Of a stretch of 64,000 bases of DNA, positions 1,984 through 52,661 are shown piece after piece. The position numbers and the translations under genes are program-made. Under the pieces are notes generated by a model, which worked only from the letters and a program-made list of their open reading frames with translations, ran no database searches and was not told the DNA's origin. The stretch spans positions 32,001-96,000 of the forward strand of contig JBHLLF010000003.1 of the NCBI GenBank assembly GCA_048885865.1. The letters are read 5' to 3'. The first letter of the stretch is position 1. Each line of letters begins with the position of its first letter. The DNA comes from Candidatus Hermodarchaeota archaeon. Its GTDB lineage: Archaea; Asgardarchaeota; Thorarchaeia; Thorarchaeales; Thorarchaeaceae.

Positions 1984-3144
1984 TTGAGTTCAATGAGCAA
2001 AGATGAAAATGAACAATCTCATTTTCGTGGAGTCAAAGATTCCTTGCATGCAGGCAAATTCGAGATTGCGATAGCAATTCTGATAGTTGTTGCATTCTTC
2101 TGGGCTGAATACACACATGCCGATCCATTGTACATCGTTTTTCTAGGAATCACAGGTGGAATTTGGCTTGCATTTCGACCTTCAGAGTGGGCAGTAGAAG
2201 GTGTTGAGAGCGTTTCTGGCCACCTAGGATATACCACATATATTGCGGGCCTTCTATCAAGTCTTGCCAGCAATATGCCAGAAGCTGTTGTTAGCGGGAT
2301 GACTGCTTTAGATGGTTTCCTTCAGGAAAGGCCTGAACTTCTGACAATAGCTATACTCTCGGTTCTAATAGCTGGCGGTTTCAATATGCTATTACTCGGG
2401 ATTACTATTGTAATCTCAACTCGAAAAAAGGACGATATGGCTGTACCCGAGGAGGCTATCAAGAAAGACTCTGTTCTCATTCGTTGGACAATTGTTGCCC
2501 TTACCAGCATGTTTGCGCTGGGGATTGTTGATGTGACATTTTTGGGAGGTACTGAGGATTTCCTCTTCCCATGGGAGGCGTCCCTCATTCTGTTCCTCTC
2601 CTATATCCTCTATTCTATTGATTTAATGCGAGGAGAAGAAGTTCAGAATGCCGATATTGCAAAGCCGGATCACTCGATGAAAACGGCATCAATCCTCTGT
2701 GTGATGGGATTCATAGGAATCTTCTTTGCAGGTGAACTACTCACTTCATCGGTCGATGTCTTGCTAACAACATATGATGCTCAGATTAGCGCTGTGGTTA
2801 ATCCAATAGCAGTAGCCGCCCTTATCCTGGGTGCTGCAGGTGCGATTCCAGAACACGGAATTGCAATCGTTGCTGCAATGAGGGGAAAGGTTGGCATCGC
2901 AGTTGGAAACCTGATGGGAGGGGTTCTTCAGATCCTGCTTCTCGTTATGGGGGGCATTGGAATCTTTGTGCCAATACCAATGAATCGCTACGTTCTATTC
3001 CAGATAGTCGTGATTGCAGGCAGCTTATGGTTCCTAAAGCAGGCCATAACTGATGACCATAAGCTCGATACATTCGAGGGCATGATGATAATACTGTTAC
3101 AAGCGTATGTATTTGCACTCCTAATCTGGGGTACGCCTATATGA
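1984..3144 (+). CDS. CaCA-family (Na+/Ca2+ or H+/Ca2+) cation exchanger
   Basis: About 10 TM helices with two alpha repeats: SLASNMPE and GAIPEH..GNLMGG. Confidence 0.8.
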   Translation: MSSMSKDENEQSHFRGVKDSLHAGKFEIAIAILIVVAFFWAEYTHADPLYIVFLGITGGIWLAFRPSEWAVEGVESVSGHLGYTTYIAGLLSSLASNMPEAVVSGMTALDGFLQERPELLTIAILSVLIAGGFNMLLLGITIVISTRKKDDMAVPEEAIKKDSVLIRWTIVALTSMFALGIVDVTFLGGTEDFLFPWEASLILFLSYILYSIDLMRGEEVQNADIAKPDHSMKTASILCVMGFIGIFFAGELLTSSVDVLLTTYDAQISAVVNPIAVAALILGAAGAIPEHGIAIVAAMRGKVGIAVGNLMGGVLQILLLVMGGIGIFVPIPMNRYVLFQIVVIAGSLWFLKQAITDDHKLDTFEGMMIILLQAYVFALLIWGTPI

Positions 3145-33660: not shown

Positions 33661-36324
33661 TTGATGCTTGTTGTTGAAGACACTGCAGAGGGCGAGGTCA
33701 AGCGCTTCCTAGTGGTTGATGCGCTGATACAACTAGGAGAGATTCAGGCCGGTTCTCAAAGCAGAATCTTTGACCCCAATAGGGTGCTCTCATTCTATGA
33801 TATGGTTGAGAATCAGCTACTCGATTACTCAAGCAAATATCCTGAGGCCTTCAAATATGTCCCCCGAAGAGCATATGCCTACCTCAAGAGACCTCCTATT
33901 CTTAGTGAGCTATATCACGATGTTTCTTCTTCAGAACTAGGATGGTTTGCCGATCTTTTCGCAGTGAGACCACTGCTAGGAGTGGGAGATACCAAGCTGC
34001 CCCTCGAACAGCGCAGGAAAAACATCACACGCACTGAGAACTGGAGTGTCACTCCACCCTTTAGCTCAAGATTATATCGACTTCAAGACATGAGATTTGG
34101 CAGCCGAGGTCGAAATGGCTGGGGTGCGGTAATGACCGCTCTGGACCTAAAAGAGTCGCTGAGAAATGACAATCGCACAGACCTCCTGAGCTATTTCAAA
34201 TCCCAGTTGCCGTTGCTAATTGAGATGGAAAAGAAGGAGGACCTTGATTTGCTAATGGAATGGCTGGTCTTCCTAAAGGATGCTGGGCTTGAGGCGCCGC
34301 CCACGCTTTTCCTACTTCGAGATCATAAGGCGTGGAACTCTGAGATCATGCGGCTGCTTCAGATTCCAAATTCCAGATTACTGCTTGCTGGTGCAACAAT
34401 AACCTCATTATCGACAATAATCAAAGACCTTCGCAACTCAACAGGCGATTCTGATTGGTCCAAGAAGTTTGTATTTGCGAGTGCATATCCTGAAACTCAG
34501 AAAGGTGATAGCATTACAGAGATCATCAGCTTTCTTCTGAGTAATAACTTGGGAGCTACTCCTGAAGAGCTGCAGCGGATTCTTGCAGGGAACCTTCTCA
34601 GTATGCTACCGCCAAGGCCTCCATATTACGAGTATGTGGACAACACATCCAGTGTGATTGCAGAAGGATTGATCGGAAAGGCATCACTCAGTGAAATGTC
34701 AAGAATCTTTAGAATCCTCGCGGCCAGAAAGATCCAGATTATCGAGTCTTTTGATTACATGATTGCAAACGAAGGCGGCGAGATCCATCTCAACGATTCG
34801 ATTTTAACTGTAAGAAATCCTATATCAAAGACGGCCAACACTGTTGTATTGCTTAACGAGCCTGATGACTCCCTCACGGTTTCTGGTTGGAGAAATTCTT
34901 TCACAAGAAAATCTCCAGATAGAATGATAGACCCTCTCAAGTCTCTAGTTCAATCAACAGCCAGAACAGATGGCCCCATTCTACAGTCGCCATCAGATAT
35001 AAACCGGTTCAATCGTGCCCTCCTAGACTGCCTGAAAGTGAAGAACATGCAGGAGATTCTTTCCGCGCTGCATTTCAAGCTAAATATGTCAGGTACCAAG
35101 AATGGAACACTGTTGATGTCAGAAGACGATATGCGTGCCATGGGTGTAGCAAATGGAGATTTGGTGTTGGGCATGGATGCCATGGAAGGTCAGTGGTGGG
35201 CAGGCTGTGTCGAACTAGATGCAGGATGTCCTCAACGAACCATTTGTGTTTCAAAAGACGACGCACTTATTCTTGGACTTTCGGAAGATTCGGTTGTGGA
35301 CATAGTCAAGAGCGAAGGCAAGATTAAGAACCTAGAGAAAGCTGTCTTTGCGTTGGACTCGACTAAGGGATTCTCAAGAGCGGAACTGCTGTCATATGCA
35401 TACCTGCATGCAGAGAGACTGCAAAAGACATTGAACGGTCAAATTCTGGGCAAGGGAACTTCAATCTGGATCAATGGTCGTGATGCTGGGGCTTGCATGA
35501 CACTCACGCACTCTGTTCCACCTCTGGATCCTGGAGAATTAGCTAGACTAGCTGGCGACTCATTGGAATTTAGACCTTCACAGATGTTCAGACCATTCAA
35601 CATGATTCTAGCCATATCGACAGATAGTGGAATGGGTGTTCAAGACATTGAACTCAAGACAGTGCAGTCTTTGAAGCGAAGACTGAGCACATTGTCCTCG
35701 ATAGTGCCGGAGATTGAAGACCTCCTATCGAATCTCGGAACCTCAATAACTAGAATGGATATGGCGACACTTGCAGCTTTGCTGCTAATTCAAAGTCTGT
35801 CCGGCAATAGAACTGATGGGTCGTTGGGTATCGTCACAGTTGGAGAAACCCCTACGAAATTCTCAATTCAAAAGGGAGAGATCATTCAGACGAGAATACA
35901 GTTCTCCAATGACTTTGCATCTGAGGATGTTCTGGTGTCAATACTCTATTCGTTATTGGACAGTTCCCGTGATTTCGGAGGTTCGGCCAGATTATCAGGC
36001 GCATTCAGAGCTATAGCCGAGTTCCTAGAAGACTTCGGTTCTGAAATGCCAACACTAATTGTATTGATGGCCAATCTAGGCGGTGAAACCTTCGAAGATG
36101 TGAAACCATTCCTACAAGCAATAGCATCAAGAAACAGATACCAAATAGAGATTCTTAGCCTGGGAGAAGATGCTCAGAGCCTTAGTCCTGATTTCAGAGA
36201 TATCAATGTAAGAGTGCATCACATGACCAGTTTTGCGGCTGATGTTTTTGAGGGCTACTTGGCCAATGTTATTGAGAAACTAGTGATGGGAAATCTTGAC
36301 CATTCTACTTCCGATGCCTTTTGA
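33661..36324 (+). CDS. Fusion of degenerate amidohydrolase + Cdc48-N-like + degenerate vWA
   Basis: VVDALIQ, FASAYP, QRILAGNLL and SFDYMI parallel ORF 32011-33519. NGTLLMSEDDMRAMGVANGDLV..WWAGCV and PFNMILAISTDSGM..QDI parallel ORF 30645-31925. Confidence 0.7.
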   Translation: MMLVVEDTAEGEVKRFLVVDALIQLGEIQAGSQSRIFDPNRVLSFYDMVENQLLDYSSKYPEAFKYVPRRAYAYLKRPPILSELYHDVSSSELGWFADLFAVRPLLGVGDTKLPLEQRRKNITRTENWSVTPPFSSRLYRLQDMRFGSRGRNGWGAVMTALDLKESLRNDNRTDLLSYFKSQLPLLIEMEKKEDLDLLMEWLVFLKDAGLEAPPTLFLLRDHKAWNSEIMRLLQIPNSRLLLAGATITSLSTIIKDLRNSTGDSDWSKKFVFASAYPETQKGDSITEIISFLLSNNLGATPEELQRILAGNLLSMLPPRPPYYEYVDNTSSVIAEGLIGKASLSEMSRIFRILAARKIQIIESFDYMIANEGGEIHLNDSILTVRNPISKTANTVVLLNEPDDSLTVSGWRNSFTRKSPDRMIDPLKSLVQSTARTDGPILQSPSDINRFNRALLDCLKVKNMQEILSALHFKLNMSGTKNGTLLMSEDDMRAMGVANGDLVLGMDAMEGQWWAGCVELDAGCPQRTICVSKDDALILGLSEDSVVDIVKSEGKIKNLEKAVFALDSTKGFSRAELLSYAYLHAERLQKTLNGQILGKGTSIWINGRDAGACMTLTHSVPPLDPGELARLAGDSLEFRPSQMFRPFNMILAISTDSGMGVQDIELKTVQSLKRRLSTLSSIVPEIEDLLSNLGTSITRMDMATLAALLLIQSLSGNRTDGSLGIVTVGETPTKFSIQKGEIIQTRIQFSNDFASEDVLVSILYSLLDSSRDFGGSARLSGAFRAIAEFLEDFGSEMPTLIVLMANLGGETFEDVKPFLQAIASRNRYQIEILSLGEDAQSLSPDFRDINVRVHHMTSFAADVFEGYLANVIEKLVMGNLDHSTSDAF

Positions 36325-36595
36325 GAGACTCAATTGTAGCTATTCGGGTTTCCAGCAAATCAACCTCAACTTCAATGTCATCTATCGTATTGCCAATTTC
36401 CTCGATTGCATTGAAATGGTCACGAATACTCAATCCTTCCAGCCGAGTAGATTCTGCATCTATAAAGGATAGAATCTCTTTGACACCATTTAAACGCGCA
36501 TGAATTTCCTCAATTATGGCCAGTGTTTCTTCTATCCGGCCTATCGCAGGAGGGATTCTCGGACTCTCTGGCACAAGATTCACATCCGACTTCAT
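36305..36595 (-). CDS. Small coiled-coil protein
   Basis: Heptad pattern; translationally coupled (ATGA overlap) to the upstream gene. Confidence 0.6.
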   Translation of the reverse strand: MKSDVNLVPESPRIPPAIGRIEETLAIIEEIHARLNGVKEILSFIDAESTRLEGLSIRDHFNAIEEIGNTIDDIEVEVDLLETRIATIESLKRHRK

Positions 36596-37833
36596 TCGAT
36601 GAGCTGAGAGGCACGTTCCTCTATTATTCCCAGTCTGGCAGTTAGCTCTTCAAGCCTATCCAGCAGATGTCCAAGCTTGGTGCGCAGCATCCCTACAGCT
36701 GCACCTTCATCTCCTCCAAAATCACCTGTCATCATGGATGAGTTCAGCTGGTCGGCAAGTAATTGGGATTGGTTCTCAATTATCTCCAGCCTCTCAATGA
36801 TTTCCTCAACTGGGAATTTTTCCATGCGCGTTCTTAGGTCATCAACCAATGTCGTAAGAGATTGAGCTGCTCGTTTCTCTTCATCACTAATCATTGGTTT
36901 GACTGGTTCTGCCAAGATGAAGGACTTCTTCACCCCCTCTAGTAAGCCTTCAGGTTTGCTTACCACCACCTCTCTAGTTCTTGTTGGAGGGTGAACTCTG
37001 TCACCCCTCTCGAACCAAGCAGGCACCAGAAATTTGCGTGCAATATCTTCAAGATCTGTATCCAGTAGTATCGCGAAGGTAGCTAATTCTCGTGGATTAT
37101 CCCAGATAGCTAGCTCCACACTGTCCTCCTTTCTAAGAATCGCCGCGGCCACTCCCAGATTCAGATCCTCAAAGATCGGCAAATCAATAAGCCAACGGCT
37201 GAAGAGAAGCGCAAAGGCTGGAATCTGTCTCAACTTCCCGCATCGCAAGGCAATTGAGTATTCCTCCTCCGGTAGTTCAATTGCTTGCTTTATCCAAATT
37301 GATGTGTTGAATTTTCTTCCGGGGATGGTCAGACTAAGAACTTCAGCAGCCTCCCATTCTATGGCGTCTATTCTCAATTGTTCAATATAGTCCAAATGTG
37401 GTTCCTCAAATTCCGGAGAGAGTTTCTCTCCCAGAATATACTTCAAGACAAGGCGAATGATTTCGTGTGGGGAATAGTCACGAAGCCAGATAGTTGTGGC
37501 CAGCTTGACTCGCCCTCGTGCGTGTTCATCATCGGATAACACAACGACCAGCTTCGATGAATCAAGCCCTGGCTCTCCAAGAATGAAGATGCCGGTTCTT
37601 CCAGGAGCATCCATTGCGCGATCAGCCATCAAATGTACAGCATCATGAGTCGGTTCAATGTAATTCTCTTGATTGAATTTCGTAGTTGAAGACTCTTGGA
37701 GTCCTTTTGCTAGCAGCCCTTCCTCAACCCATCCCGATTTGAGTCCCTTTTCTGGAAGTTGCGATATTAGATATCCAAGAACTTCGCTGCTACTATACAT
37801 TGCTTGAAGTCTGGTTATTGCTTCGTCGTTCAC
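36592..37833 (-). CDS. Hypothetical protein with C-terminal coiled coil
   Basis: 413-aa ORF coupled by a GTGA overlap; globular N-terminal part and heptad-rich last ~100 aa. Confidence 0.7.
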   Translation of the reverse strand: MNDEAITRLQAMYSSSEVLGYLISQLPEKGLKSGWVEEGLLAKGLQESSTTKFNQENYIEPTHDAVHLMADRAMDAPGRTGIFILGEPGLDSSKLVVVLSDDEHARGRVKLATTIWLRDYSPHEIIRLVLKYILGEKLSPEFEEPHLDYIEQLRIDAIEWEAAEVLSLTIPGRKFNTSIWIKQAIELPEEEYSIALRCGKLRQIPAFALLFSRWLIDLPIFEDLNLGVAAAILRKEDSVELAIWDNPRELATFAILLDTDLEDIARKFLVPAWFERGDRVHPPTRTREVVVSKPEGLLEGVKKSFILAEPVKPMISDEEKRAAQSLTTLVDDLRTRMEKFPVEEIIERLEIIENQSQLLADQLNSSMMTGDFGGDEGAAVGMLRTKLGHLLDRLEELTARLGIIEERASQLIE

Positions 37834-38957
37834 CTGCCAACAACCTCGTTATCAATCCTATCGAATATTCTCTCAATCCTTGGTTTAACTTCTTTGAACT
37901 TGTCTATATGAATCAGACTCCCTTTACCCGCAACCGCAATAGCTTGCATTAAATCCATGTCTGATTCGGTTCCCAGTGCCACGCATGTAACAAAGATGCC
38001 TTGGCTCGCCCCCATTTTTCTTGCTGTAATAACCGGATTGCGACCTGAAGTGAATGCACCACCAGATATGAGTATCACAAGGGTGGGGAGCCCATTCCGC
38101 GATTTCAGTTGGTGTGCTATTTCAATAGACAAATCCATGGCGCTCCCAGGATTTGATGGTTCATCATTGCGGTCATTATTCTGTTCTGAAAGCCAATCAT
38201 GGATTGACTGATATGATTCTGAACTCAACTGAAGCATGCTACCTTCGGTAGTTGCCAATTCTTCGGACGACTCGCCAAACGCAACAGCTGAAACCAAAGC
38301 ATCATCGCACTCCTTGGCAGAGGATAGTATGGTCTCAATTGCACACAGACTAGCTTTGAATCGTGTGATTCCTGCAGTGCCATCTTCCATCTCTATATCT
38401 TCAATACCAGATGATGCTCCCACGTCTACCAAGCAACATAAATTGAAACAAGAAGGAAATTCAGCTTGAGCGGTAAGATTGACCTTCATTAGCTGATTCC
38501 ATATAATCCTAGATGCCTGCAGTTGCTCTGTAACGGGCTTTGAGTTATCCACGATTAATCCTATGCCAAGATCAGCAATATCAATCCGCTGTCCCATTCG
38601 TACAATACGACCATCAAGATGGTCCTTGAGATCATCGATTCGTCTGGATAGAGCATCCACAGCTTTTGTATTCTCTACTCCTTCCAGAGAATCAACAAGC
38701 AGAGATAGCTCATTGGAGTCAGGAATTGCTTCAGGAACAGCTGTCAAGGTAACTTCGCTGTGCTCTTCACATCCCAATTCATTGAATATTCGGGAATCGA
38801 TCACAATGGAGCCAGAAGCTATTCTCTCTGAAGTGCGAATGTCAGTGAAAACAATCACTCCTTCATAGCTCAATTGCGCCGTTGAAATCGTGGTTACAGA
38901 GGGATGCACAAATGAGATTCCTCTCTGGCTTCGCCCTTTGATAGCATCAAGCTCCAA
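37830..38957 (-). CDS. Cdc48-N-like + vWA paralog with degenerate MIDAS
   Basis: Likely TTG start at 38957 (after GGTG) gives MELDAIKGRSQRGISFVHP, matching the paralog N-terminus. FNLCCLVDVGAS, ISGGAFTSGRNP, CVALG, MQAIAVAGKG. Confidence 0.7.
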   Translation of the reverse strand: MELDAIKGRSQRGISFVHPSVTTISTAQLSYEGVIVFTDIRTSERIASGSIVIDSRIFNELGCEEHSEVTLTAVPEAIPDSNELSLLVDSLEGVENTKAVDALSRRIDDLKDHLDGRIVRMGQRIDIADLGIGLIVDNSKPVTEQLQASRIIWNQLMKVNLTAQAEFPSCFNLCCLVDVGASSGIEDIEMEDGTAGITRFKASLCAIETILSSAKECDDALVSAVAFGESSEELATTEGSMLQLSSESYQSIHDWLSEQNNDRNDEPSNPGSAMDLSIEIAHQLKSRNGLPTLVILISGGAFTSGRNPVITARKMGASQGIFVTCVALGTESDMDLMQAIAVAGKGSLIHIDKFKEVKPRIERIFDRIDNEVVGR

Positions 38958-38973
38958 GACCGGCCACCCACAC

Positions 38974-40116
38974 CTAATACAGACGGGTATTGTATATCGC
39001 AGTTGCAAGCGATTTGGAACCATACATGACCTCAACACGAATACTTGCCTTACCTTTTTCATCCGTCATTGGCGTGAGCTGCGATTCAATATGTCGTTCA
39101 GAGTTGGGGCCAATTTCATGCTTTTCATTTGTGACCTCAGACACTCCTTCAGGCGTGATTAATGTGACTATAAGACGGATTCCTATTACAGCTCGACTTG
39201 GATTCTTCACTCTCAAATCATACATGAATGGTCTTCCGGCGATCAGAGCGTCAGGGACTTCACCAAGCTCAACACTCATTCCCATCTTTGATGCTGCAAG
39301 CGGACGACCCTTAGGCCATCTTGAAATTTTGCTGAGCTCAAGCAACCGTGAGAGTGATGTCTTTACATCTCTAATCTCCAGTCCAAGCTGAACTGCAGAC
39401 TCCCCGATGTCAAATGTCCCGTCATTTGCCTCATAGTAGGCAAGAACTCTTCGATCAGATTCAATGAGGTCACTTACTCCTTCAAGGATTTGAAGGATAG
39501 CTTCCGGTAATTCGTGTGCCTCCTGAAGAGAATAGTATCGCCCTCCATCTACCGAATCTGCTATGCTTTTGAATGACTCTCTTACAAGAGGATTGCAGCC
39601 ACAAACGAAAATGAATACAGTTTCCCCGTATCGGCTCTTGAGGGATTGCACTTCCCTCTGAGAGTCATGGCCTTTGGGGCACCCGTCTGGAAAGTAATCA
39701 TCGCTGAGGTTGTTGTACTTTCTGCCATGGGGTGGTGCATCACCGACAAGTAGCAACGCCTTGTAGGCATGTTCATCCCATGAGAGCTTTGTCCTAGCAT
39801 CAAACAATCCGTCAGCAACAGCTTCAGGTGTATCTCCACCCTGAGAAGGATTAAGATTCGATATCTCCCTATGTACGTTCTTGATACGATCCGAAAAATC
39901 GAAAATCCGTGTCACGTAGGAGTGATCCTGAGGCGGATGATCACGGTATGAAACTATTGCGAATCGTATACTCAAATCCCTGGTTCGTGTAGTAATTTTG
40001 TCGACAATGTCAAACAAGCTGTCCTTCACTGCACGAATGTCATCTTTCATTGAACCGGTCGTATCGACCACAAAGGCAACGTCAAGTTTGGCTCGCTGCA
40101 GCCCAATCCACTCCAT
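38974..40116 (-). CDS. vWA (DTTGS/GDAPPH subtype) + HTH + C-terminal beta-sandwich protein
   Basis: LDVAFVVDTTGSM, SYRDHPPQD, GGDTPEAV, VGDAPPHG; then SAVQLGLEIRDVKTSLSRL (HTH-like) and an Ig-like end. Confidence 0.85.
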   Translation of the reverse strand: MEWIGLQRAKLDVAFVVDTTGSMKDDIRAVKDSLFDIVDKITTRTRDLSIRFAIVSYRDHPPQDHSYVTRIFDFSDRIKNVHREISNLNPSQGGDTPEAVADGLFDARTKLSWDEHAYKALLLVGDAPPHGRKYNNLSDDYFPDGCPKGHDSQREVQSLKSRYGETVFIFVCGCNPLVRESFKSIADSVDGGRYYSLQEAHELPEAILQILEGVSDLIESDRRVLAYYEANDGTFDIGESAVQLGLEIRDVKTSLSRLLELSKISRWPKGRPLAASKMGMSVELGEVPDALIAGRPFMYDLRVKNPSRAVIGIRLIVTLITPEGVSEVTNEKHEIGPNSERHIESQLTPMTDEKGKASIRVEVMYGSKSLATAIYNTRLY

Positions 40117-40597: not shown

Positions 40598-41152
40598 CTA
40601 TAGACTCTGCTGAAGGTTCCGTAAAAGCAGCTCATTCTCATCAGGTTCTACTACGGTGGGATCTACAACTATGCCAGATTCATGGGCTTCAATAACCACA
40701 TCAATTCCAGATTGACTAACCTTTTTTATCCCTGAATGGGAGAGAGCTCTCACTCTCAATTGGGTCGTGTCGAACTCGGTCCTATCTGCGGATTCGACCG
40801 CCTTGACGTCTCTGCGCAGTTTTGTCTTTGCTATTCGAAGCTGCTCCTTCAACTGGACCAGTTGGAGCTGAAGGTCAATTCGCTCACGATCTGCCGCCTC
40901 GAATTTTGCTAGAACCTCATCATGCTGAGCCTTTGAAACCAGATTTCGGGTTTGATCAATCCAAGTGATGGTAGTGCCATCAAACCGACGTTTCGTTGAT
41001 ACTTGTCCTAGAGCTTTTAGAACAGCTATTACATCATAGATTCGCCGTTTGGGAGTATTGAGTTGCTCAGCTAATACATCGCTCCTAATCCCTTCCTCCC
41101 CATGTTCCTTTAGTATTCTAAGAGCAGTTTTTGCCAAATCTACTAGCTTCAA
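40598..41152 (-). CDS. E2F/DP-like winged-helix transcription factor with coiled coil
   Basis: LAEQLNTPKRRIYDVIAVLKALGQV...ITW matches the E2F/DP RRxYD recognition helix. A heptad repeat and a beta-rich tail follow. TTG start after GGGGTG. Confidence 0.8.
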   Translation of the reverse strand: MKLVDLAKTALRILKEHGEEGIRSDVLAEQLNTPKRRIYDVIAVLKALGQVSTKRRFDGTTITWIDQTRNLVSKAQHDEVLAKFEAADRERIDLQLQLVQLKEQLRIAKTKLRRDVKAVESADRTEFDTTQLRVRALSHSGIKKVSQSGIDVVIEAHESGIVVDPTVVEPDENELLLRNLQQSL

Positions 41153-41222
41153 AGTCGCACCCCACTGACAAGCCGGCTAGAGTTTCCACATAGCACTCTT
41201 CCACTATAGGAATCATTGACTC

Positions 41223-41230
41223 TATTTAAA
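41223..41230 (-). promoter_or_regulatory. TATA box of E2F-like gene
   Basis: TTTAAATA on the minus strand ~70 nt upstream of the start codon. Confidence 0.55.
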
Positions 41231-41406
41231 GGTAGGTGTTATGTCTCGATTTTCCGAAATTATTCACTGATAACCATAATTATCATTATTGGAATGATTT
41301 CTCGAAAAATCGAGAGTGTTTTGATGAGGGTATCCACCGTTAATTACTTAACACGCACCTCTGGCTAATTCAAACGTTTCTGACAAGTTTCAACGGAGAG
41401 ATTCCA

Positions 41407-42735
41407 ATGACCAGAAAGAAAGTAATAATCATGGGCGCAGCTGGCCGTGATTTCCATAACTTCAACGTATTCTTTCGTGACAATGAGGACTATGAGGTTG
41501 TTGCATTCACAGCTGAGCAGATACCGGGCATTGAGGATAGACTGTATCCTCCAGAATTATCCGGGGACCTTTATCCTGATGGTATCAAGATTTACCCCGA
41601 AGAAATGCTGCCCGAATTGGTTGAGAAGTTTGAGGCGGAACAATGTATTCTGGCATATTCTGACCTATCCTATGACACAGTGGGACACAAGATTGCATGG
41701 GTGAACAGTATCGGTGCAGACATCAGACTCATGGGTACCAACTCAACGATGCTGAAGAGCAAGAAACCAGTCGTTGCGGTCTGCGCTGTTAGAACTGGAT
41801 GTGGAAAAAGCCAGACCTCTCGGCGAGTGAATCAAATTCTGGTTGATATGGGCCTCAAGCCTGTTAACATTCGTCATCCGATGCCATATGATCCTGATCT
41901 CACAACTCAGATAGCACAGCGCTATGAGGTTCTAGAGGATTTGGATAAATACAACTGCACAATTGAAGAACGTGAAGAATATGAACCCATGATCAACATG
42001 GGAGTGATACTCTATGCTGGCATTGACTATGGCAAGATATTGAGGCAGGCTGAGGAAGAAGCTGATGTGATTACGTGGGATGGAGGCAACAATGACTTTG
42101 CGTTCTATCGTCCTGATTTATACATCGTAATCACCGACCCACACAGACCGGGACATGAGGTGTCCTATTACCCAGGTGAAACCAACCTTAGGATGGCTGA
42201 TGTTGTGATCATTAACAAGGTCGACACCGCCGACTATGACTTTGTTGAAGAGGTCAGAGATAACATCATGCGCGTCAATCCGAATGCAATCATCATTGAG
42301 GCCGCCTCGCCTGTCGCTATAGAGGACATGAGCATCATTCGCGGAAAACGAGTACTTGTTGTTGAGGATGGGCCAACTGTCACTCATGGTGGCATGCCTT
42401 ATGGTGCCGGATACATTGCAGCGAGGAAAGCAGGAGCAGAGATTGTGGACCCAAGGCCTTTTGCCGTTGGCTCAATTGAGGACACATTTGAAAAGTACTA
42501 TCATCTTGAAGACGTCCTACCAGCAATGGGATATGGCAAAGCCCAGATGAAAGAGCTCGAAGATACAATCAATAAAGCAGACGTCGATGCGGTTGTGATT
42601 GGCACTCCAATTGACCTCGGGCGACTTATCAAAATTAACAAACCGAGTGTCAGGATCAGATATGACCTACAGGAGATTGGCCGGCCAAATCTCGAAGACA
42701 TTCTCTCGGAGTTTGCTGAGAAGAAAGGCTTGTAG
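41407..42735 (+). CDS. Arginine synthetase (ArcE)-like P-loop enzyme (often annotated GTPase / cDPG synthetase-like)
   Basis: GAAGRDFHNFN, AVRTGCGKSQ, IRHPMPY, TIEEREEYE, WDGGNND, EDGPTVTHGGM. Confidence 0.75.
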   Translation: MTRKKVIIMGAAGRDFHNFNVFFRDNEDYEVVAFTAEQIPGIEDRLYPPELSGDLYPDGIKIYPEEMLPELVEKFEAEQCILAYSDLSYDTVGHKIAWVNSIGADIRLMGTNSTMLKSKKPVVAVCAVRTGCGKSQTSRRVNQILVDMGLKPVNIRHPMPYDPDLTTQIAQRYEVLEDLDKYNCTIEEREEYEPMINMGVILYAGIDYGKILRQAEEEADVITWDGGNNDFAFYRPDLYIVITDPHRPGHEVSYYPGETNLRMADVVIINKVDTADYDFVEEVRDNIMRVNPNAIIIEAASPVAIEDMSIIRGKRVLVVEDGPTVTHGGMPYGAGYIAARKAGAEIVDPRPFAVGSIEDTFEKYYHLEDVLPAMGYGKAQMKELEDTINKADVDAVVIGTPIDLGRLIKINKPSVRIRYDLQEIGRPNLEDILSEFAEKKGL

Positions 42736-43767: not shown

Positions 43768-45363
43768 CTAGGCTGGTTTCGGACGAGCATCAAGTATCTC
43801 CATGAATTTCATTCCACCAGCCCGTTCTAGCAATTCCTCAAAGGATACGATGAATATGTCGGGGGTTACTTCTGTGCTGATTTTCGTTAGCCTCTGAATC
43901 TCGAGGATGAGAGATTCATTGTTGCCTCCCGGTCCATCTTTTGGGGCCACATAGAGGTTGAGCACATCCATACTATATGGATCACTCATATCTTCTTTGG
44001 CTACCTCGATCTGTATCTCCTCAATTTCTGAAATCTTCAACAAATCGGCCCTCAAAGCAGTGAGATTAACTGTTGCGCCTTTGATCTTCTTCTCGGCAAG
44101 ACCCATCACCTCAATCTGAGCCTGTGCATCGTTGGTACGACCTATGTCCCAGAAGAAGGGGCCATCGATTCCGCAACATGGACATTTTCCTCGCTCATGC
44201 TTGGACGCCACGTCTCCCAATAGGAAGCCTTCAAAGACTGTTCCAGTGCTGTCTAGATGAAAGAGCAATGTATGACCCGGTTCACCCTCTCCAACAAACT
44301 CATAGCTTCCATCATCATTCAGCCTAACGAATTCCCATGACATCATAAGCGGAGACAAGTTATGATAAGGCCCATCGTATTCGCATTGAACTGCAAAGGA
44401 GACCTTGCTCTCTGATGATGCATAGCCCCCAATGATTCTGACTTCCTTTGCTCCCTTCTCAGTCAAAATCTGTGTGATATCATCAGCAACTCGGGGGTAG
44501 ATTTTCTCTCCTGCAAGCAATACAACTACTTTCTCAGGAGCCTCATAGTCGGCATCTTCCTTCATAGCCCGGAAGAACCTGTTTCTGAGAAAGCTAGGCA
44601 TCCCAGTAAAAGCGTTTGATTTGAAGGACTTTGCAAGCTCCACAAGCTTTTCACTTGGTATCGCTCCACCTGCGCTTGTGGCATTATAGAATTTACTAAT
44701 CTGCTTGAGACCCTCATTGACAGCATGCCAGCCCAGATGTGGAGCATACGGAAACAGATTCATGCTAGAAGCCTCCCACCCGCTTTCAACAAAGGTATCA
44801 ATAGCAAGTTGACCACACTTCGCACTATTGCTGGATAGCAGTTCATTGTCATAGCGGGTCAGAAACACTGGCGATGGCAACCCTGATGCCCTTCCGGAAC
44901 TCAACCAGTATTGAAGTGGAGAATAGGTATACGTCAATCTCTCCTTAATTCGATCCATCGCCGCTGAAGCTCCAATCTTCAGCTTCACGCGTGCCCCATT
45001 GTTGCGCAAGAACCTGTACTGATGCTTGTTCCCTGTATCCTTAGAAAAATCCATCAAATTTCGAACAATCTCCGCAGGATCTCGATCTTTGCCATCGACC
45101 TCAGACGGATTCAGCACGAATTGTGTAAGGTTATCTTTGTAATCGACCTTCCTCACAAGCGGAATCTGATATTTCGCCCAATCTTCGATGCAGGTGATAT
45201 TGTAAGGATCAATATTGTTCTCTTTGAACAGTCGCCTGTAATAGGGATGGTTGGGCCATATCTGATATCGAATGAACGCCCGAAATTTCCGGTCCTGCAT
45301 TTGCTTAATTTCACGGTGGTTAGTTCTCTTTAGCTCCTCAAATGTTAGAGTAGTCTTTGTCAT
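43768..45363 (-). CDS. Phenylacetate--CoA ligase (PaaK)-like adenylate-forming enzyme
   Basis: HPYYRRLF, LSSGRASGLP (P-loop), AGE, GYASSE, GD, IGR..D..KIKG. Confidence 0.75.
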   Translation of the reverse strand: MTKTTLTFEELKRTNHREIKQMQDRKFRAFIRYQIWPNHPYYRRLFKENNIDPYNITCIEDWAKYQIPLVRKVDYKDNLTQFVLNPSEVDGKDRDPAEIVRNLMDFSKDTGNKHQYRFLRNNGARVKLKIGASAAMDRIKERLTYTYSPLQYWLSSGRASGLPSPVFLTRYDNELLSSNSAKCGQLAIDTFVESGWEASSMNLFPYAPHLGWHAVNEGLKQISKFYNATSAGGAIPSEKLVELAKSFKSNAFTGMPSFLRNRFFRAMKEDADYEAPEKVVVLLAGEKIYPRVADDITQILTEKGAKEVRIIGGYASSESKVSFAVQCEYDGPYHNLSPLMMSWEFVRLNDDGSYEFVGEGEPGHTLLFHLDSTGTVFEGFLLGDVASKHERGKCPCCGIDGPFFWDIGRTNDAQAQIEVMGLAEKKIKGATVNLTALRADLLKISEIEEIQIEVAKEDMSDPYSMDVLNLYVAPKDGPGGNNESLILEIQRLTKISTEVTPDIFIVSFEELLERAGGMKFMEILDARPKPA

Positions 45364-51366: not shown

Positions 51367-52269
51367 ATGTCAGATGATGTCCATGAGCGTCTAAAGGAAA
51401 AGACTCTGCAGATAGCACAACTCCAACATCAGTTGCAGGTTTTGCAGGCTCAACTTGAAGGAACACAGCGTCGAGCTGGAGAAACAAGCACCAAAATCGT
51501 CGCTCTAGAGAATCTCATCACTGAGAAGGACTCAGAAAATCATATGCTGCGAACTGAACTGGGGCGCACTAAAGGGGCCTTGGATACGATGGGTAAGGAG
51601 ATCCAGGGGATACGGGCTGAACAGACTCAACAGATGGCAAAGGCTAGGCCAAGTAATGATGACTACTCCCTCAGGCAACAGCTTTCTGATGCATTAAGAA
51701 GAAATGAATTATTGAAAGAAGACATCAAATCTCTGTCAGAAGCGGCATCAGCGGTTCTCAAAGATGAACCAGGTGCTAGAGAGCATCTTCGAGATGCGAT
51801 TATGCTTGTTGGAGATCCGAGATTCAAGATACTCAATATCGTGCTGGAGAAGAGATCTGTGAGAGTAGAAGAACTTGCTGCAAGTCTTCAGTTGGATATG
51901 ACAGAGGCATTAGCACTTGTGGATGAACTCCAAGCTGCAGGTGAGATTGAAGTTAGAGATGGCAGTACCGTTTTCCCAAGAGAAAAGCATCGCGAAGTCA
52001 AGATACCTGTTGAAGAGTGGAAGACATGGGACCCTGCTGATATTTTCGATTCTCTTGAAGATATAGTTAGACGAACAGAGGGGCATGAGTCTATTTCGAA
52101 GGCAATTGTTACAGCAGTAGACATACTAGAACAAAAAATCGCCCGGGGTGGTGCGTTGGTATTTCAAATGAGAAAGACTGCAGACCTATGGAAAAAGGGC
52201 AAGGGCAACATTGAGGAGCTTCAATATACAATAAGGGAATGGAAGGGTCGTGCTTTGTCGCTCGGCTAG
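51367..52269 (+). CDS. Long coiled-coil + winged helix hypothetical protein
   Basis: ~130-aa heptads, then FKILNIV..VEELAASL..LVDELQAAGEIEV. Start uncertain (51334 or 51367). Confidence 0.65.
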   Translation: MSDDVHERLKEKTLQIAQLQHQLQVLQAQLEGTQRRAGETSTKIVALENLITEKDSENHMLRTELGRTKGALDTMGKEIQGIRAEQTQQMAKARPSNDDYSLRQQLSDALRRNELLKEDIKSLSEAASAVLKDEPGAREHLRDAIMLVGDPRFKILNIVLEKRSVRVEELAASLQLDMTEALALVDELQAAGEIEVRDGSTVFPREKHREVKIPVEEWKTWDPADIFDSLEDIVRRTEGHESISKAIVTAVDILEQKIARGGALVFQMRKTADLWKKGKGNIEELQYTIREWKGRALSLG

Positions 52270-52661
52270 TCTTCAGACCCCTTCTTTATGGCCTCCTTTA
52301 CATAGGCGCCAAAATCTGAGGTTTCACCATCACGTTGTATACGAATCTTCGGCTCTTCTCCCCTGACCTGACGTTCGATGTATCTCACATCCAACTGACT
52401 CATCTGCTGTCGATATCCTCTGTAAACAATCAGATACAGAATGACCTCTTCTACTTGTTTAGCCACTGCATCATTCTGCGTCTTCAGATTATTGAGATAC
52501 GAATATGCCTCCGTTGTGAGAAATCTGCCAAGCAGCTTTGCTCTTTCTACTCCTACCTTTTCTTCCTGTTCACGCGCAGCTTGTATCTGCTTCTCTCGCT
52601 TCATCATCCGAGCCATTTTTTTCCTTCGGATGATTGCTAGGTCAGGATCATCATCTGTCAG
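52266..52661 (-). CDS. PDCD5 / dsDNA-binding protein family
   Basis: DLAIIRRKKM..,FLTTEAYSYLNNLK..VAKQVE..EPKIRIQR. An in-frame CTG at 52661, 7 nt after GAGGT, restores the conserved N-terminus. Confidence 0.82.
   Translation of the reverse strand: MTDDDPDLAIIRRKKMARMMKREKQIQAAREQEEKVGVERAKLLGRFLTTEAYSYLNNLKTQNDAVAKQVEEVILYLIVYRGYRQQMSQLDVRYIERQVRGEEPKIRIQRDGETSDFGAYVKEAIKKGSED

Follow-up and report, generated by a model that had tools for sequence, protein, structure and literature searches.

An E2F/DP-family winged helix followed by a predicted coiled coil in a Thorarchaeota protein

The 184-aa protein encoded at 40598..41152 on the minus strand of the window (the whole stretch of 64,000 nucleotides analyzed here) is, in our reading, a Thorarchaeota representative of the previously described Asgard E2F/DP family that would pair with itself, bind DNA through its RRxYD helix, act at a thyA-nrdD promoter, and in that way serve deoxynucleotide supply. 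We assign this reading a probability of about 0.55. As such, the finding is not new: both the family and its occurrence in Thorarchaeota were published in 2023. Section 4.1.5 ("E2F/DP") of the supplement to Eme et al. (2023, Nature 618:992; PMC10307638) reports homologues in most Asgard groups (arCOG02749), and the protein studied here belongs to the same family. The ESP table of that study lists, under "E2F/DP PF02319," Thorarchaeota proteins that match this one in length and architecture and are clearly close orthologues. According to the same section, the base-contact residues are conserved and the regulator-binding domains are lacking, and we reached the same conclusions. A 2024 review (PMC7617429) also reports Asgard genomes as encoding E2F homologues. 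We found no literature report of a target, partner, or oligomeric state for the Asgard E2F-like proteins, and in section 4.1.5 of PMC10307638 we found no mention of the cyclophilin-like neighbor, the promoter element, or the thyA-nrdD site described below. Our additions, offered as hypotheses and not as discoveries, are a dimerization-type coiled coil, a negative marked-box test, the cyclophilin-like neighbor, the promoter element, and the thyA-nrdD site with its controls.

Conservation identifies the open reading frame as a genuine gene and not a chance one, because it has more than 150 homologues with 55 to 94% identity (nearly all of about 183 aa and labeled Thorarchaeota or Promethearchaeia) and because the alignments show conservation over the full length, the C-terminal block included. 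The homologues also place the window in an Asgard genome of Thor type. The gene begins with TTG. In support of this start, a GGGGTG Shine-Dalgarno-like box (41158..41163, minus strand) lies 5 nt 5' of it and is recognizable in 8 of the 9 loci compared from the genome's own family (the Thor family). A TTG start is also annotated for a close orthologue in the ESP table of PMC10307638. Among nine Thor-family loci (L014-L027) considered for pinning the start, seven use TTG or GTG rather than ATG, one uses ATG, and one is unresolved; the start invariably follows a GGGGTG-type box. The sequence-only reading had picked out three short stretches of the protein, and all are present in the 184-aa frame as described: LAEQL (residues 27 to 31), KRRIYDVIAVLKALGQV (residues 35 to 51), and ITW (residues 62 to 64). 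No NCBIfam family matched the protein.

The N-terminal domain (40958..41146, minus strand; residues 3 to 65) is supported by sequence comparison as a member of the E2F/DP winged-helix family. E2F_TDP (PF02319) was the best Pfam match, with 36.2 bits against a gathering threshold of 25.7 and an E value of 5e-9. The second-best family, HTH_11, reached 18.7 bits (E, 1.6e-3) and TrmB reached 14.5 bits (cut-off, 25.6), both below their cut-offs. When 71 members of the family were tested, E2F_TDP matched every one of them and was the top family in each. Alignment of the family profile with eukaryotic E2Fs by hhalign gave a probability of 98.4% (E, 5.6e-15). The only sequence matches to the domain in the PDB were E2F8 and E2F4, the best being the E2F8 structure 4YO2 (profile E value, 1.6e-5). 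When 1.84 billion representatives were searched with a profile, only 49 proteins had an E value of ≤1e-3; these included full-length relatives (Hel-, Odin-, Baldr-, Loki-, and Ranarchaeia), smaller forms of about 120 to 130 aa, and, as a tail, true E2Fs with E2F_TDP plus E2F_CC-MB. The deep search arrived at true E2Fs and at no other winged-helix families.

The AlphaFold2 model, built on a 71-sequence alignment (mean pLDDT, 85), shows a winged helix made of helices 3 to 20, 24 to 31, and 35 to 47 and strands 51 to 56 and 59 to 64. The recognition-helix motif, RRIYD, lies at residues 36 to 40 (41033..41047, minus strand), and R36, R37, Y39, and D40 were invariant among all aligned Asgard relatives in three alignments. 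In the list of structural matches, E2F4 in the E2F/DP DNA-binding-domain structure 1CF7 had both the lowest rmsd (1.5 Å) and the highest identity (29%), and the winged helices are superposable.

We also considered the possibility of a generic archaeal regulator of the TrmB/MarR type, with a winged helix, a coiled coil, and a small sensor domain, whose likeness to E2F is convergent or exists only at the level of the clan. The fold searches (Foldseek twice and VIA-align wide), in which essentially residues 1 to 72 were tested, returned only generic winged helices, with those of MarR, Z-alpha, ArsR, and SelB ranking level with or above E2F4 and with BusR and TrmBL2 in the Foldseek lists. Furthermore, weak matches to TrmB and HTH_11 occurred in 25 and 30 of the 71 members, respectively. 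TrmB regulators have a winged helix, then a dimerizing helix, and then a C-terminal domain; BusR and TrmBL2 likewise combine a winged helix and a coiled coil with a further C-terminal domain. Unlike TrmB, however, the Asgard protein lacks a sugar-binding domain and clearly prefers E2F_TDP, and no C-terminal Pfam family matched it or the 71 members. The curated Pfam cut-offs, the hhalign comparison, the PDB matches, and the deep profile search all argue against a generic regulator, which we regard as highly improbable. The sequence-only reading, which had proposed an E2F/DP-like DNA-binding domain, is borne out: generic archaeal families are not preferred over E2F_TDP, since the latter is the best family for the protein and for 71 of 71 relatives and the hhalign probability to eukaryotic E2Fs is 98.4%.

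A predicted coiled coil (40808..40933, minus strand; residues 74 to 115) follows the winged helix. In the 42-residue helix of the AlphaFold2 model, the a and d positions of the heptad register have a mean hydropathy of +1.2, compared to -2.1 at the remaining positions. Aligned by hhalign with a eukaryotic E2F profile, the winged helix alone scored 71.4, and the winged helix together with this helix scored 91.7. Column-shuffled helices gave 74.0 ± 2.1, and none of 40 attained the real score; among the other control helices, the reversed one gave 84.4 and mid-range circular shifts gave 76 to 82. Because the reversed segment scored 84.4 and the real one 91.7, roughly two-thirds of the gain reflects generic coiled-coil character and roughly one-third is position specific. 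Taken together, the modeled helix, the heptad register, and the hhalign score support a coiled coil directly after the DNA-binding domain, in the same place as in E2F, and the coiled coil of about 40 aa anticipated by the sequence-only reading is thereby upheld. These comparisons support a shared architecture and a probable dimerization element; they do not prove homology of the helix segment to the E2F coiled coil.

The part of the Eme et al. supplement that deals with E2F/DP (PMC10307638) says that the coiled coil is absent from the Asgard homologues. Our data support a view contrary to that wording, as we find a conserved heptad helix that adds score against the E2F coiled coil, together with a conserved beta tail. 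Since the gene is single copy, a homodimer of the E2F-like protein is plausible; the coiled coil, perhaps together with the tail, would mediate the self-pairing, and the homodimer would bind DNA through the RRxYD helix.

The remainder of the protein forms a conserved tail of four strands with a terminal helix (40604..40777, minus strand; residues 126 to 183). In the model made with 71 sequences, the strands span residues 131 to 136, 142 to 147, 152 to 156, and 161 to 166, and the helix spans residues 172 to 183, in agreement with the beta-rich tail noted from the sequence alone. Residues 126 to 166 fell below a pLDDT of 50 in a model made with 17 sequences, and the tail was well modeled with the 71 only, which may simply reflect alignment depth. 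In eukaryotes, the coiled coil and marked box of E2F/DP are represented by the structure 2AZE. Conceivably, the protein has the eukaryotic E2F core in full, the tail being a diverged marked box that would form an intermolecular beta-sandwich in the homodimer. The order of elements is the same and the lengths are similar, and a global-mode alignment paired TQLRVRALSHSGIKKV of the tail with TLIAIKAPxGTxLEV in a sensible-looking register; the same strand pair was the best local hhalign match. In addition, an E2F_CC-MB cluster headed the ESM Atlas feature hits for residues 70 to 184, at a score of 0.75, which lies within the range of shuffled proteins.

The other comparisons argue against a marked box. 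The corresponding Pfam family, PF16421, did not match the protein and reached its cut-off in none of 301 Asgard genomes, and hhalign of the tail with the eukaryotic marked-box region gave E values of 0.33 (local) and 0.94 (global). With the alignment anchored on the winged helix and the coiled coil, the tail scored 84.7 and shuffled tails scored 84.7 ± 4.5, with 21 of 40 shuffles equal or better. At the sequence level, we therefore reject the tail as a marked box, which had been part of the comparison with E2F/DP drawn by the sequence-only reading, for lack of Pfam, hhalign, or shuffle-test support. A complete E2F core in this protein is, in our judgment, unlikely.

We next describe the distribution of the family and the eukaryotic components that accompany E2F. 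E2F_TDP matched in 124 of 301 sampled genomes of the phylum and in 68 of 76 of the Thor family, and several large families were without any match (0 of 68, 0 of 28, and 0 of 21 genomes). Nearly all of the Thor family had one match per genome, and the gene is single copy in the source genome, which is 87% complete. With one E2F_TDP gene per genome, there is no E2F/DP pair. Neither a DP C-terminal domain nor a match to the pocket protein family RB_A was found in the 87%-complete genome. The protein lacks a transactivation or pocket-binding region because it ends at residue 184, directly after the tail. Eukaryotic E2F1-6/DP is a heterodimer, whereas the Asgard E2F-like protein has one gene per genome and only 184 aa, and differs further in having no detectable marked box, DP C-terminal domain, or transactivation/pocket-binding tail, and no RB_A in the genome. 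It would represent a counterpart of the E2F-DP heterodimer made from a single gene, lacking the marked box, the transactivation domain, and control by pocket proteins. The atypical E2F7 and E2F8 act without DP. E2F8 provided the best PDB sequence match (4YO2); E2F7/8 have two winged helices per chain, seen as two matched stretches in 4yo2_A, whereas the Asgard protein has one plus a coiled coil.

Upstream of the gene, we found a conserved promoter element with the consensus TCGRAAAATCG. One copy, TCGGAAAATCG (41247..41257, minus strand), lies about 105 nt 5' of the start and faces the E2F-like gene, just upstream of a TATA-like box, TTTAAATA (41223..41230, minus strand), and a similar A/T-rich box occurs at the same position in most orthologous promoters. 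A second, inverted copy, TCGAAAAATCG (41302..41312, plus strand), faces the divergent 442-aa gene. Allowing at most one mismatch, the element was present, facing the gene, at -83 to -125 in 10 of 13 Thor-family promoters (the distinct ones with enough upstream DNA), against a background of 0.017 per 250 bp. It occurs 13 times in the genome, compared to about 1 expected from an order-3 Markov simulation; 8 of the 13 copies are intergenic, and several precede TATA-like boxes by 17 to 30 nt. Orthologous promoters from other families lack the element, and no common upstream motif was seen in the non-Thor orthologues. The genes downstream of it code mostly for large proteins with signal-peptide-like N termini and show no common theme. 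Expression of the E2F-like gene thus appears to be governed by TCGRAAAATCG, via the E2F-like protein or another factor. CGCG or GCGC is absent altogether from most own-gene promoters of the orthologues. Since most of these promoters lack the CGCG core, either the gene is not autoregulated or the protein binds a non-E2F site.

These observations bear on a narrower interpretation, in which the winged helix is genuinely of the E2F family and its role is local: the protein would bind TCGRAAAATCG at its own divergent promoter as well as at a handful of other genes, would work with the cyclophilin-like neighbor, and would leave the thyA site described below to another regulator. Autoregulation is common among archaeal winged-helix regulators. 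The conservation of the element in most Thor-family own promoters, its two copies in this intergenic region, and its excess in the genome favor such a role, as do the AsnC-type regulator gene adjoining thyA and the absence of a genome-wide enrichment of E2F words. On the other hand, the element has no CGCG core, is confined to promoters of the one family among those compared, and precedes genes without a shared theme. The base-contacting RRxYD residues are, moreover, invariant, and Eme et al. argue in their E2F/DP section (PMC10307638) that the conserved base-contact motif predicts eukaryote-like DNA motifs. We consider a purely local role rather unlikely, and in the reading that we prefer, TCGRAAAATCG would serve as a separate element for the gene's own expression.

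The most likely target of the protein in the Thor family would be the eukaryote-type E2F site TTTSGCGC about 100 nt upstream of thyA, in a promoter region that thyA has in common with nrdD and a thioredoxin-like gene. In eukaryotes, thymidylate synthase and ribonucleotide reductase belong to the classical targets of E2F. In the source genome, GGCGCCAAA lies at -103 of the thyA-like gene on contig C77 (approximately position 3035), the region is shared with the divergent thioredoxin-like gene, which nrdD follows, and the promoter DNA contains TTTGGCGCC. Of 21 Thor-family genomes (16 genera), 13 had an exact TTTSSCGC in the 300 nt preceding thyA, 12 of them between -130 and -60, and several of the remaining thyA promoters carry degenerate versions of the site. 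As background, 3.0% of the promoters in the source genome have a TTTSSCGC site, and 0.7% have one between -130 and -60. A family with thyA-like genes and no E2F_TDP (f9) had the site in none of 20 thyA promoters. Because these counts come from related genomes and are not independent, binomial and Fisher P values make the evidence look stronger than it is. Outside the Thor family and f9, the site was present in 1 of 8 thyA promoters from genomes with the E2F-like gene and in 0 of 12 from genomes without it. Co-occurrence of the thyA site and the gene across the phylum was accordingly rejected: with the site in only 1 of 8 thyA promoters of the other families, having the gene is no predictor of the site. 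On C77, thyA is followed directly by the AsnC-type regulator gene, whose product could be an alternative user of the thyA promoter. A protein binding the thyA-nrdD site would regulate deoxynucleotide supply.

Genome-wide, E2F-type words occurred at chance levels (TTSGCGCSAA, 13 versus 12.3 expected; the 12-mer, 1 versus 0.8), and they were modestly overrepresented in intergenic DNA (24 versus 15 expected). Among the genes preceded by other intergenic sites are those for CDC48, a nucleoside phosphorylase, an Lhr helicase, and a MutS-like protein, along with unrelated ones. A perfect palindromic E2F-type 12-mer occurs only once in the genome, as TTTGGCGCCAAA (contig C25:31703-31714; L031:4704-4715); an Alg13-like glycosyltransferase gene ends 11 nt before it, and a lysine-rich 252-aa ORF without a Pfam family begins about 210 nt after it. 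MCM was rejected as a target, as TTGGCGCGAAA sits inside coding sequence (the 3' end of a 200-aa ORF), 176 nt before the MCM start. At that locus (contig C12:32188-36147), an RFC-like gene diverges from the 200-aa ORF, which is GINS-like and is followed by MCM; both the RFC-like and the GINS-like assignments were made by eye only, and the ORF had no Pfam match. An E2F-type site within the window, at about 49037, was also discarded, as it is not conserved in four syntenic loci.

A cyclophilin-like gene (PF04126; 40195..40590, plus strand), single copy in the source genome, converges on the E2F-like gene, and 7 nt separate the two stop codons. It was the convergent neighbor in all 20 distinct long-form E2F-like loci, which represent four Asgard families (14 from the Thor family, the window included, 4 from f19, and 1 each from f15 and f16). 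The 18-kb regions had nothing else in common between families. A literature search on PF04126 returned nothing. The cyclophilin-like protein is a candidate partner of the E2F-like protein or a candidate co-regulated function. The shorter E2F_TDP proteins (148 to 161 aa; families f3 and f12) are instead encoded tail-to-tail with a PDCD5-like dsDNA_bind (PF01984) gene, an arrangement noted at L022:8346-8714 and L026:8237-8653. The PDCD5-like gene of the source genome is at 52266-52616 of the window (minus strand), about 11 kb from the E2F-like gene.

The remaining neighbors are conserved over a shorter range. The divergent 442-aa gene (41407-42735) has a weak CobW/HypB-type P-loop match and is 80 to 87% identical across the Thor family; outside this family, it is not a neighbor of the E2F-like gene. 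The sequence-only reading had placed the gene next to a cluster of vWA genes. Such genes do lie nearby in the window (36592-40116, minus strand). The link to the E2F-like gene, however, was rejected: vWA genes are neighbors in part of the Thor family only, they are absent beside the orthologues at two Thor-family loci (L018 and L027) and in other families, and between them and the E2F-like gene lies the cyclophilin-like gene, on the opposite strand. Two of them contain a vWA domain (37830-39062 and 38974-40116, minus strand), their longest ORFs overlapping by 89 nt, and only some Thor-family genomes have them at that position. Three large proteins encoded in the region are conserved in the Thor family: one of 887 aa (33661-36324, plus strand), one of 413 aa (36592-37833, minus strand), and one of 531 aa (43768-45363, minus strand), the last with up to 84% identity across the family. 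None of the three matched a Pfam family at an E value of ≤1e-4.

The E2F/DP factors drive the G1/S transcription program in eukaryotes, and E2F control of deoxynucleotide synthesis is central to that program. A bolder version of our reading would place a homodimer on TTTSGCGC of the shared thyA-nrdD promoter, would have E2F control of deoxynucleotide synthesis predate eukaryotes, and would give the cyclophilin-like protein the part of a partner or modulator replacing pocket proteins; taken as a whole, this combination seems to us unlikely. With the present analysis, a catalogue entry becomes three testable hypotheses, concerning self-pairing, the thyA-nrdD site, and the cyclophilin-like companion. 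If the thyA-nrdD target is true, part of the logic of the E2F regulon would predate eukaryotes.
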